47,880 nt of DNA from a virus (lineage: Duplodnaviria; Heunggongvirae; Uroviricota; Caudoviricetes), in IMG/VR virus record IMGVR_UViG_2880412407_000003, positions 1 to 47,880 of that record. One strand, given 5' to 3'. Made by a program: the position numbers. The stretch's first letter is position 1. Every line of letters starts with the position of its first letter. Shown here one piece after another: positions 6,001-9,000 of the stretch.

Positions 6001-9000
6001 GTTCTGTGGGGCGGGGTGGGTTGGTATTTTTAGTTTAATAAACATTAAACTTAAGTCAAGTAAAAACTAAACCGCGGGACATAACAAACACAACGCTTTT
6101 GATAAAGTCGTTGCGGTTGTTATGTTTCTATTGGTAGTGAAAGTTAGGGAAACTGGCGTCTTGCGTGGATCACGTTTACTACTTCAACGCTTGATGTTGT
6201 TACGCGGTATAGAATTATATAGTTAGGGTGGGCTACAATCTCACGCAAGCCAGGTACTCTGTCGCTTGGTGGGTATAAATACGGATGTTCGGATAACGGC
6301 AGCACACAACCCCTTAATCGCTGCCATAAGCGTTCAGCCGCATCTATGTCGAAACGAGCAATATAACTAGTTATATCATCTAGGTCGGTATCTGCGCTTT
6401 CAAGCCATAACACGGGTAACATTTTACTGCTTGCTCCGTTCCTTGCGCATCTTAGCAAAGCGTTCTGCCATTCTGCGCTCAACTTCGTCATGGGGAATTG
6501 CTGGGCGCGGATCTGCAAGGCTCGTTGCTACTTTCGCACGCAGCCATTCGTTGTAACTGTTTTCTTGTTCAATGGTTTCAAATTCAGAAACCATTGGTGA
6601 AAGGGCTCTATTCATGTTTCCTCCGGTTTTATAACTCAGGCGCGGCGGCATTTTTGCGCCGCAATCCATCTCGCTATGAGATCTTCCATTGATTCTTTTT
6701 TCTGCTTTAACTCGCTGATTATCTGGCGTTGCTCATCCTCAGGGAAGGCTGAAAAAATCTGCAATAATTCCAGTTGATTAGACGTTAACCCTGCATGTGG
6801 TGGAGAAACCCCCGGTTGTTCTGCGTATTCCGCATCCAGATACCCTTCCGGCATCCCGTATGTTTGCTCTATTCTTCTGGCAGCCTTTTCTCCAAACGAG
6901 GCTCTCCCACTCATTAGTTGAGATAGGTAGCTCTTCTCTTTGGGTGGCAGAGTTTTATCTTTAAACCACTCCTTGAGACGTAAACGGCGAATTTCTTTTT
7001 TTTGCATGTGGTAATTATCTTTAGTAATCACTAAACAAGCAAATACTTGACTCAATGGTTTATTAAACACTAAACTCGCAAAAAAACACTAAACCGAGGA
7101 AGGTATGACATTAAAAGAGTTTATTAAATCATTAAGGGTTGGTGATGCTAAGAAATTCGCGGCCAGACTTGGTGTATCGCCATCTTACTTATCGCAAATG
7201 GCGTCTGGACGAACAGCTATATCTCCAACCCGCGCCCTTATGATCGAATCTGCGACGGAAGGCCAAGTAAGTAGGGCGGAGCTACGACCTCATGATTGGG
7301 AGCTTATTTGGCCTGAGTATGCGAGCGGCATTCGTTTGGGGCAAACACATGTAGTTCATGCTGAAGGTGATTGTAGTGCATGCTTATCTGATGGAGTTGA
7401 TTCATGAAAATCAAGCATGAACACATCCGCATGGCGATGAATGTCTGGGCGCATCCGGACGGCGAAAAAGTACCGGCTGCGAAAATTACCAAAGCGTATT
7501 TCGAGCTGGGAATGACGTTCCCGGAACTGTATGACGACAGCCATCCGGAAGCCCTGGCCCGTAATACCCAGAAAATTTTCCGTTGGCTGGATAAAGACAC
7601 CCCTGATGCTGTTGAAAAAATGCAGGCTCTGTTACCGGCGATCGAAAAGGCGATGCCGCCTTTGCTGGTGGCCCGTATGCGCAGCCACAGTTCTGAATAT
7701 TACCGTGAGATCGTCGAACGGAGGGAGCGGCTGGTGAAGGATGTCGATGATTTTGTTGCGTCAGCGGTTGTTTTGTATGACCAGATGAATCGCGGCGGCC
7801 CGGCAGGGAATGCTGTGGTGATGCACTAAAAGCACGGTGTTCGGGGGTTTTATGAGCAGCAAGCTTCATGGTCTTGTCTGGGAAGGGTGCGCCTTCACCG
7901 GCATGATCTTATCCAGGGTGGCGGTTATGGCCCGTCTTGCAGACTACAGCAATGACGAGGGCGTGTCATGGCCTGCCATTGAAACTATCCGGCGTCAGAT
8001 CGGTGCAAGAAGTGAATCCACAGTGAAATCGGCTATTGCAGAACTGGCGAAAGAGGGCTGGCTGACGAAGGAAGAGCGTAAGGTCGGTGGGCGTAATGTA
8101 AGCAATATCTATCGGCTTAATGTGGAAAAACTCGAAGCAGCTGCGGCGGCGGCGCGTGAGTCATATAAACCGAAAAGAAAAATTAGCCCGGCAAAAAATG
8201 ACCCGTTAACAGTTGACCCGTCAAATATTGACCCCTCAACGGTTGACCCGTCAAATTTTGATGGATCAACTGTTGATAAAAAACTGCCGATTAGGGGGGC
8301 GATGATTGACCCCGATCCGTCAGTATTAAAACCTGATCCGTCAGATAAAAGATCTTCTTGTCCGGACGCTTCGCAACCGGACCCGCAGACGGCTGAACAG
8401 GATTTTTTAACCCGACACCCTGACGCGGTTGTGTTCAGTGCGAAAAAACGCCAGTGGGGAAGTCAGGAAGATTTGGTGTGCGCACAGTGGATCTGGGGAC
8501 GAATCGTGAGTCTTTACGAGCAGGCGGCCAGCGATGATGGCGAGATCACTAGACCGAAAGAACCCAACTGGACAGCATGGGCCAATGACGTTCGCACAAT
8601 GCGGATGCTGGATGGCAGAACTCACAGACAAATTTGTGAAATGTTTGGGCGTCTCCAGCGGGATTCGTTCTGGGTAAAAAACATCATGAGTCCGGCAAAA
8701 CTCCGGGAAAAATGGGATGAACTGGTTATCCGCCTGGGGCGTTCGCCTGCGCAGCGTTGCGTGAATCACATTTCTGAACCGGACACTGAAATACCGCCGG
8801 GCTTCAGGGGGTAAGTGTTAATTTCTGGTCATGAGGTAATTTTCAGGAGGGCTTGTGGCAAAAGTTTTTACACAAGAAGAGCGGGAGAAAATTAAAGGGC
8901 AGGTTGTTGAACTCGTACGCCAGAGTGGGCGCGAGACGTTACGGCAACTGGAAGCCAAGACAGGTGCGACAAGATATCTGATGAGCGTTCTCGCCAGAGA

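Follow-up and report, generated by a model that had tools for sequence, protein, structure and literature searches.

Which system is encoded by the three co-oriented genes in the immunity region of a 47,880-bp stretch of Caudoviricetes DNA (the whole stretch that was analysed, here called the window), and what does it do there? A sequence-only reading had proposed that a ParE/ParD-like toxin-antitoxin pair, expressed together with a repressor, constituted an uncharacterised functional system in the position of lambda rexAB. The operon (positions 6144-7007) is, almost certainly, the already published paaR2-paaA2-parE2 locus (RAE2), a three-component type II toxin-antitoxin system, and it sits within the immunity region of a CP-933P/Sp12-type lambda-like prophage. 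The locus was described by Hallez et al. [quoted passage not shown] Structures have been solved by crystallography, NMR, and SAXS (PDB: 3ZBE, 5CW7, 5CZE, 5CZF, 7NKV, and 8C3K), the promoters have been mapped, and footprinting and single-cell studies exist (the methods in PMC8630535 comprised 5' RACE, N-terminal sequencing, EMSA, DNase footprints, promoter-gfp repression, bistability, and mini-F stabilisation), so that the word "uncharacterised" has to be withdrawn. The result is a correct rediscovery of a known system; the RAE2 locus is not new, and the finding carries little weight as a discovery, since the locus, the structures, and the promoters are in the literature, as is the analogy with lambda cI-rexAB; what it does show is the soundness of the reasoning from the sequence. 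No observation contradicts the identification; less certain is the biological role.

Sequence identity, anatomy, promoter and operator statistics, and distribution were established in the present analysis (for the coordinates of the features, see Table 1). The start and stop codons of the three genes were all verified on the minus strand. The genes follow one another as R-A-E, separated by 20 nt (paaR2-paaA2) and 1 nt (paaA2-parE2), the toxin ATG thus following the antitoxin stop by exactly the distance noticed before, and a GGAGG (6624-6620) lies 4 nt upstream of the paaA2 ATG. The identification rests on proteins identical to the solved ParE2, PaaA2, and PaaR2 N-terminal chains, with which the family assignments agree. 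ParE2 is identical at 92 of 92 residues to E. coli O157:H7 ParE2 (PDB: 5CW7_B/5CZE), the same sequence being present in O157:H7 and phage Evi; PaaA2 is identical at residues 2-63 to 3ZBE/5CW7; and residues 1-66 of PaaR2 are identical to the solved N-terminal domain (7NKV/8C3K, "Phage repressor protein CI"). Over its full length, PaaR2 differs from that of O157:H7 strain TR01 by one change (V67 here, G67 in TR01). The 2-kb region is 99.8% identical to that of O157:H7 (4 SNPs, with one amino acid change each in PaaR2 and YdaT) and 100% identical in O121:H19 genomes. Compared with the RAE2 of CP-933P/Sp12, the genes, their order, the 97-bp OR region, and the PR/PL hexamers are all the same, and the ParE2, PaaA2, and YdaS proteins are identical. 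However, the surrounding prophage is a different mosaic from CP-933P (left: kil with dicB and ydfC remnants; right: other replication genes), and the host is an O121:H19-type strain.

Table 1. Features of the RAE2 immunity region (positions in the window)
Feature	Position	Strand	Details
Hairpin between parE2 stop and OL/PL, 22-nt arms	6079..6125		82% complementary, 3-nt loop
OL operator cluster	6029..6075		operator-like repeats 6037-6050 and 6059-6072; palindrome 6029-6054
PL-type leftward promoter (PL933P equivalent)	6032..6059	-	-35 TTGACT 6059-6054, 16-nt spacer, -10 TAAACT 6037-6032
parE2, ParE-family toxin, 92 aa	6144..6422	-	ATG 6422, stop 6144-6146
paaA2, antitoxin without DNA-binding domain, 63 aa	6424..6615	-	ATG 6615, stop TAA 6426-6424
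paaR2, CI-analogue repressor, 123 aa	6636..7007	-	ATG 7007, stop 6636-6638
PRM-type promoter	7014..7042	-	putative hexamers: -35 TTGCTT 7042-7037, 17-nt spacer, -10 GATAAT 7019-7014; +1 = A of paaR2 ATG (7007)
OR operator cluster	7019..7094		CACTAAAC x3; GTTTAGTAA-type half-sites
PR-type promoter	7047..7076	+	TTGACT, 18-nt spacer, TAAACT
ydaS, Cro analogue, 100 aa	7105..7407	+	Pfam YdaS_toxin, HTH_3; function from PMC8630535
YdaT operator OM, TTGATTCATGAAAATCAA	7397..7414		ydaS/ydaT junction, PRE region; published position
ydaT, CII analogue, 141 aa	7404..7829	+	Pfam YdaT_toxin; PHROG "CII-like transcriptional activator", E = 3e-47

The repressor matched the PHROG "transcriptional regulator" (E = 2.3e-39), and its C-terminal part resembles the C-terminus of DicA in a match below the cut-off (E = 1.1e-6). 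PaaR2 shares with lambda CI an N-terminal HTH domain that binds OR and OL, but it lacks the S24 domain of RecA-stimulated autocleavage: no Pfam family was matched by the 123-aa protein at E <= 0.01, and in the literature the peptidase motif is missing and there is reportedly no response to mitomycin C (PMC8630535). PaaR2 is described there as a CI analogue with a leaderless mRNA: its N-terminus was sequenced as MQKKE, and transcription begins at the ATG itself. Its binding to DNA was demonstrated by EMSA and footprinting, and YdaS and YdaT act as Cro and CII. YdaS is identical to the O157:H7 copy, whereas YdaT differs from it by one change (E108 here, D108 there). The YdaT site, defined as TTGATT-N6-AATCAA in PMC9986795, has a single match in the window, at OM. 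Rac RacR-YdaS-YdaT and Qin DicA-DicC of E. coli K-12 share the SOS-insensitive repressor type, the divergent ydaS/ydaT-type genes, and the leftward dicF/dicB/kil operon, but according to the published comparison no toxin-antitoxin pair stands behind the repressor there.

The promoter pattern TTGACT-N16-18-TAAACT occurs exactly twice in the window, at the PR and PL positions, as the sequence-only reading had it; it was found in none of 100 dinucleotide-preserving shuffles, and 0 occurrences are expected by chance. PR933P was located by 5' RACE, and PL933P, with the same hexamers as PR933P, is repressed about 100-fold by PaaR2 and YdaS (PMC8630535). The PRM hexamers, as read from the sequence, are putative and agree with the 5' RACE result of the same paper; the promoter scan missed PRM because its -35 is weak (3/6). 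Between paaR2 and ydaS lie 97 bp (7008-7104), as in the published locus, in which about 78 bp were protected by PaaR2 and about 65 bp by YdaS (PMC8630535), and one of the SNPs falls just after the PR -35 (7053; C here, T in O157:H7). PR, PRM, and PL are reported to carry the OR and OL operators, with OL1-OL3 at OL (PMC8630535); the OL boundaries given here do not come from the figure of that paper. All three copies of CACTAAAC in the window lie inside 66 bp of OR (7029-7094); the total is ordinary (at least 3 in 7 of 100 shuffles), but the clustering is unusual. ACTAAAC, for which operator-like copies at both sites had been claimed, has one further exact copy at OL (6066-6072), and five 14-nt operator-like copies obtained by the repeat search cluster at OL (6037-6050 and 6059-6072) and OR (7023-7036, 7062-7075, and 7081-7094). 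When at most 2 mismatches are allowed, the half-site GTTTAGTAA of the literature is densest in 7000-7099 (7 matches), followed by 6000-6099 and 27000-27099 (4 each). Note that the counts of CACTAAAC and ACTAAAC alone have no window-wide significance; the statistics are carried by the clustering and by the 12-base promoter pattern. The hairpin between parE2 and OL/PL (-24 kcal/mol, z = -4.2; equal stability in 1 of 200 shuffles) is possibly the 3' end, a terminator, or an insulator of the operon. As a canonical intrinsic terminator it was rejected, because no U-run directly follows the stem on the minus strand, and the terminator scan downstream of parE2 gave nothing convincing.

Regulation, toxicity, and addiction are taken from the papers, and we infer that the locus functions in the same way in this prophage. 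According to this literature, PaaR2 does the work of lambda CI, and its leaderless mRNA starts at PRM; it binds the repeated operators at OR and OL, represses PR (ydaS-ydaT) and PL, the promoter of the leftward dicF/kil/exonuclease/xis/int operon, and at a low level activates its own promoter. The translationally coupled paaA2 and parE2 are carried on the repressor transcript and hence expressed in the lysogen-like state, with the YdaT-activated PRE as a second route of expression. PaaA2, which is labile (PMC8630535), wraps and neutralises ParE2 and is degraded by ClpAP and ClpXP; upon loss of the locus, PaaA2 decays and ParE2, nucleoid-associated and SOS-inducing, halts growth. Addiction is accordingly the most probable role: the module would keep the immunity region and the prophage from being lost or replaced. 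Experiments on the identical proteins showed the toxicity of ParE2, its neutralisation by PaaA2, co-transcription, and addiction (PMC8630535). In that study, ParE2 induced the SOS response and colocalised with the nucleoid, the locus was bistable, and it stabilised an unstable plasmid, with which the earlier suggestion of prophage stabilisation agrees; addiction was demonstrated with plasmids and not with a chromosomal prophage, and ParE2 activity (SOS induction) was undetected by the authors in either expression state.

An ordinary two-component ParD-ParE module beside an unrelated phage repressor, autoregulated through its antitoxin, is one rival reading, and the toxin does belong to the ParE Pfam family (ParE_toxin, PF05016; 60.9 bits against a cut-off of 23, E = 1.9e-16, with residues 4-91 aligned to positions 1-89 of the 89 in the profile), with a match to Caulobacter ParDE1 (PDB: 3KXE) at E = 3.6e-5. 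The antitoxin half of the designation did not hold in the profile search that had been suggested for both proteins. The sole Pfam match of the 63-aa PaaA2 is PF21217 (PaaA2; 70.7 bits against a cut-off of 27, E = 1e-19), a toxin-binding motif at residues 16-45, accompanied by NCBIfam NF050103 at 84 bits, and no Pfam match to ParD or a ribbon-helix-helix domain was obtained at E <= 0.01; in the literature PaaA2 has no DNA-binding motif and regulation is passed to PaaR2 (PMC8630535). The system has in common with classical ParD-ParE (RK2; Caulobacter ParDE1, 3KXE; Vibrio cholerae ParDE2) the ParE/RelE-type toxin, the labile antitoxin, and addiction, but a separate repressor regulates it, and unlike classical ParE, ParE2 reportedly neither binds GyrA59 nor inhibits gyrase. 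The PaaA2-ParE2 pair occurs without PaaR2 outside enterobacterial prophages, which also speaks for such a module. However, the 20-nt gap between paaR2 and paaA2 holds the Shine-Dalgarno and has no space for a promoter and operator, and in the literature there is a single operon under PaaR2, YdaS, and YdaT (PMC8630535). An autoregulated ParD-ParE is therefore highly improbable, and at this locus it is refuted by the published promoter and operon mapping. Equally improbable is a decaying, functionless remnant, for which the state of the prophage would speak. The prophage around this RAE2 copy, from an O121:H19-type Shiga-toxin-producing E. coli, is heavily degraded and riddled with insertion sequences (IS66, two IS3-family copies, and IS600); the closest genome has a truncated portal gene, a frameshift in a tail gene, and no more than remnants of dicB and ydfC. 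Yet the five immunity-region genes are intact, as are all their promoters and operators. ParE2, PaaA2, and YdaS match the functional O157:H7 proteins at every residue, with PaaR2 and YdaT one residue off each, and the module is common among E. coli, at least 80% of the 2-kb region being present in 590 of 5426 complete genomes. Survival of the module inside a decaying prophage is, moreover, what addiction itself predicts.

The comparison with lambda bears on a further alternative. As in lambda OL/PL-rexB-rexA-cI-OR/PRM/PR, there are OL and OR operator sets, an octamerising repressor with a leaderless gene, divergent cro- and cII-like genes, and accessory genes co-transcribed with the repressor, and the architecture and regulation are similar. 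Co-transcription of the pair with the CI-like repressor between OR/PR and OL/PL, which had been proposed from the gene arrangement, is experimentally established (PMC8630535). The rexAB-equivalent slot likewise stands: the pair is co-oriented between the repressor gene and OL/PL, and the 2023 YdaT paper (PMC9986795) states that paaA2-parE2 replace rexA-rexB. In contrast to lambda, RAE2 has no sequence homology to CI, RexA, or RexB (Pfam: ParE_toxin and PaaA2), its operators are four 18-bp palindromes with direct repeats instead of three palindromes, and the accessory genes are a toxin-antitoxin pair. The pair might mainly be a lysogen-expressed abortive-infection or exclusion system like RexAB, in which an infecting phage shuts off host transcription or triggers degradation of PaaA2, so that ParE2 is freed and the infection is aborted. 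The position and repressor co-expression shared with rexAB, the lability of the antitoxin, the growing number of type II toxin-antitoxin systems found to be anti-phage (PMC10440598), and the presence of the cassette in many prophages and at least one isolated coliphage would all fit. We nevertheless consider exclusion unlikely as the main function: addiction is the sole demonstrated phenotype, homology to RexA/RexB is absent, none of the PADLOC defence models matches the toxin, the antitoxin, or the repressor, which leaves the idea with no database support, and literature searches found no phage-challenge experiment on RAE2.

Addiction thus remains the preferred reading, and the distribution of the module shows with which repressors the pair is combined. 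In paaR1-paaA1-parE1 (CP-933M) and other heteroimmune variants, the same three-gene logic is found in the prophage immunity region, but the repressor specificity differs and the toxin-antitoxin pair has diverged; a viral-contig cluster that may be ParE1, at about 68% identity in ParE and 42% in PaaR, shares this layout. Each of the 80 related viral contigs has the cassette downstream of a PaaR-like repressor and also a match to YdaS and/or YdaT, which every locus listed carries on the opposite strand. Repressors of several different types accompany the pair, and in some variants two repressor-like genes stand in tandem upstream of paaA (L132, IMGVR_UViG_2778261463_000009). Outside enterobacterial prophages, the PaaA2-ParE2 pair is present in 77 of 80 species loci, with a PaaR2, YdaS, or YdaT match in none, and a helix-turn-helix domain was found in 1 of 42 upstream same-strand ORFs at those loci. 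By crude ORF calling on the same strand within 250 nt, no conserved third component was found beside these distant pairs, a result that is no more than suggestive. We think it rather doubtful, with about the same expectation as for exclusion, that paaA2-parE2, besides acting in addiction, is a "moron", a mobile accessory unit that has come to stand behind several heteroimmune repressor alleles, in some cases behind a tandem of two repressor genes, and that may protect lysogens from superinfecting or recombining phages by RexAB-like exclusion or as a guard of the immunity region, the latter being a published hypothesis. The additions of this work are small, namely the O121:H19-type degraded prophage, the carriage by Evi, and the several repressor types; since Evi is an isolated coliphage carrying the module, questions on RAE2 could be tested in a live phage rather than in a cryptic one. 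The window differs from NZ_CP027454.1 by 1 SNP across the first 13.9 kb and has an extra IS3-family copy near 24.5-25.7 kb. A 118-aa minus-strand ORF (5492-5848) left of PL was considered as the first PL gene and rejected, the substitution pattern (small numbers) favouring the antisense zinc-ribbon gene. Between the window and Evi, this ORF shows very few differences.

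The feature at the immunity region is real and was correctly read from the sequence alone, and the system it encodes is already known. The three genes paaR2, paaA2, and parE2 are tightly packed and co-oriented; a 20-nt gap that contains a GGAGG Shine-Dalgarno motif separates paaR2 from paaA2, and parE2 begins 1 nt past the TAA stop of paaA2, as the sequence-only reading had claimed, and its coordinates and gene order for the region were likewise borne out by direct reading of the sequence. The paaR2 start was assigned to position 7007, rather than to that of a longer GTG ORF, because 5' RACE mapped the transcript start to the ATG and the protein's N-terminus was sequenced as MQKKE (PMC8630535). 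The toxin was identical to ParE2 of E. coli O157 (PDB 5CW7 chain B) at 92 of 92 residues, residues 2-63 of the antitoxin to PaaA2 in 3ZBE, 5CW7, and 5CZE, and residues 1-66 of the repressor to 7NKV/8C3K, the PaaR2 N-terminal domain, deposited under the title 'Phage repressor protein CI'. In Pfam, the toxin matched ParE_toxin (60.9 bits), the antitoxin PaaA2 (70.7 bits), and the two divergent genes YdaS and YdaT; the repressor had no Pfam match. NCBIfam and PHROGs concurred with the family assignments and added a weak resemblance of the repressor C-terminus to that of DicA. Thus, of the ParE/ParD-like pair proposed earlier, the ParE half stood and the ParD half did not; the Pfam search found no ribbon-helix-helix domain in the antitoxin.

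Features of the immunity region and of the surrounding prophage
Feature	Position	Strand	Remark
paaR2, repressor gene	6636-7007	-	sequence read
paaA2, antitoxin gene	6424-6615	-	63 codons; sequence read
parE2, toxin gene	6144-6422	-	92 codons; sequence read
Spacer, paaR2 ATG to divergent gene	7008-7104		97 bp
ydaS, divergent gene	7105-7407	+	Pfam YdaS
PR	7047-7076	+	TTGACT/TAAACT pair
PL	6059-6032	-	TTGACT/TAAACT pair
PRM (putative)	TTGCTT 7042-7037; GATAAT 7019-7014; +1 at 7007	-	17-nt spacer; inferred from sequence
Zinc-ribbon gene	5513-5713	+	66 aa; ECs_2282 family
118-aa ORF	5492-5848	-	phrog_21318; annotated in phage Evi
IS3-family copies, adjacent	23085-24298, 24526-25739	-
sok antisense RNA	14005-14179	+	adjoins hok-family gene
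Three tRNA genes	19116-19365	+	cluster
STnc100 sRNA	20138-20327	+	beside AgvB
AgvB (anti-GcvB) sRNA	20328-20389	-

The locus was studied in the cryptic prophage CP-933P (Jurenas et al., mBio 2021; PMC8630535) and is therefore not the uncharacterised system it had been taken for. In that work, PaaR2 proved functionally analogous to lambda CI, the paaR2 mRNA is leaderless, the locus is bistable, ParE2 activity was seen in neither expression state, and the whole region stabilised a mini-F plasmid on a par with ccdAB. Its summary of Hallez et al. (2010) describes a single PaaR2-repressed operon made up of the three genes, a toxin, ParE2, that colocalises with the nucleoid and triggers the SOS response, and an antitoxin, PaaA2, that ClpAP and ClpXP degrade and that lacks a DNA-binding domain. 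ParE2 is reported neither to bind GyrA59 nor to inhibit gyrase. The proposed rexAB-equivalent slot is also in print, since the YdaT paper states that paaA2-parE2 replace rexA-rexB (PMC9986795).

The promoter and operator arrangement is no chance pattern. The pattern TTGACT-N16-18-TAAACT had exactly two matches in the 47,880-bp window, PR and PL, and none in 100 shuffles, in agreement with the two like-hexamer promoter regions noticed earlier. CACTAAAC occurred three times in the window, every copy within 7029-7094, and a 14-nt operator-like repeat family (n = 5) was confined to 6037-6072 and 7023-7094. In the 97-bp intergenic region, the published footprints of PaaR2 (~78 bp) and YdaS (~65 bp) cover palindromes with the half-site GTTTAGTAA and direct repeats; PL933P, beyond parE2, has the same -35 and -10 as PR933P and three OL operators, and is repressed ~100-fold by PaaR2 and YdaS (PMC8630535). 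Our own placement of the PRM hexamers is consistent with the published RACE result. YdaT activates the PRE promoter (PMC8630535), and its operator was defined as TTGATT-N6-AATCAA (PMC9986795), of which the sole match in the window was at 7397-7414. OL is separated from the parE2 stop by a strong hairpin at 6079-6125 (-24 kcal/mol, z = -4.2, arms of 22 nt); no U-run directly follows the stem on the operon strand, and a 3'-end stabiliser, a terminator, and an insulator are candidate roles.

In a lysogen-like state, PaaR2 would occupy OR and OL and keep ydaS-ydaT and the leftward operon off, while paaA2-parE2 would be carried on the repressor transcript and translationally coupled; upon loss of the locus, the labile PaaA2 would decay and free ParE2. 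Addiction guarding the immunity region and the prophage is the best-supported reading, the tests being on plasmids; the prophage stabilisation suggested earlier matches the mini-F result (PMC8630535). Alternatively, paaA2-parE2 might be an abortive-infection system; however, no PADLOC model matched, and no phage-challenge experiment was found in the literature searched.

Several O121:H19-type genomes carry the 2-kb immunity region at 100% identity, and O157:H7 carries it at 99.8%; of 5426 complete E. coli genomes, 590 contain at least 80% of it. Four SNPs separate it from that of O157:H7 strain TR01: PaaR2 has V67 instead of G67, YdaT has E108 instead of D108, and one base differs just past the PR -35 hexamer, whereas ParE2, PaaA2, and YdaS are unchanged. 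Escherichia phage Evi, a coliphage isolated from infant faeces, carries the complete paaR2-paaA2-parE2/ydaST module (LR597642.1 24235-25309; 6001-7075 of our locus L002) at 98.4% identity with parE2 intact; thus, the module is not limited to cryptic prophages. The Evi parE2 is unannotated in that record, yet its ORF is intact and its protein identical. Between 6030 and 7104 the window and Evi differ at 17 positions, four of them in 6075-6102.

Among 80 related IMG/VR viral loci, PaaR2 was at least 98% identical in 48 and 85-97% in one more; the repressor fell below 60% in 20, and in 11 a 71-74% PaaR2-like repressor was followed, ahead of paaA, by a second DicA/PaaR-like HTH gene, whose product has the same C-terminal motif as the 71-74% homologue. 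In IMGVR_UViG_2778261463_000009 (L132), the tandem genes lie at 2975-3346 and 3306-3779 upstream of paaA-parE, and 10 further viral loci share this arrangement, which could be a four-gene operon or a trace of recombination between heteroimmune regions. Homologous PaaA2-ParE2 pairs occur widely across the alpha-, beta-, and gammaproteobacteria: 77 of the 80 loci taken from other proteobacterial species (L005-L084) had the pair, with ParE identity of 47-74% over the full listing and, in stand-alone pairs, similarly short aligned antitoxin segments. PaaR2, YdaS, and YdaT were found in none of these 80, and crude ORF calling gave no conserved upstream family (HTH in 1 of 42 upstream ORFs). Subject to that ORF calling, the distribution fits the published idea of a two-gene cassette inserted into prophage immunity regions.

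Remnants of ydfC and dicB flank the DicF sRNA gene (4959-5010, minus strand; Rfam 74.2 bits, E = 1.2e-14), which therefore belongs to the leftward operon that PL would drive; the annotation of the closest complete genome has kil, an exonuclease gene, xis, and int there. Just left of PL, two antisense ORFs overlap (5492-5848). Sixteen substitutions among six variants were 9 synonymous and 7 non-synonymous in the plus frame and 2 and 14 in the minus frame; by this measure the zinc-ribbon gene, convergent with PL, is probably the real gene of the two.

Over its first 13.9 kb, the window differs by one SNP from E. coli 2014C-4423 (NZ_CP027454.1), the closest complete genome. The prophage is degraded, with IS66, two adjacent IS3-family copies, and IS600, and its portal gene is truncated in the 2014C-4423 annotation. 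NZ_CP027454.1 has one IS3-family copy at the site against two in the window, which therefore represents a sister strain with an added insertion; each copy carries an ALIL frameshift pseudoknot (Rfam; 23901-24017 and 25342-25458). ARAGORN called the tRNAs Met(CAT), Arg(TCG), and Arg(TCT), the first being Ile in PGAP.
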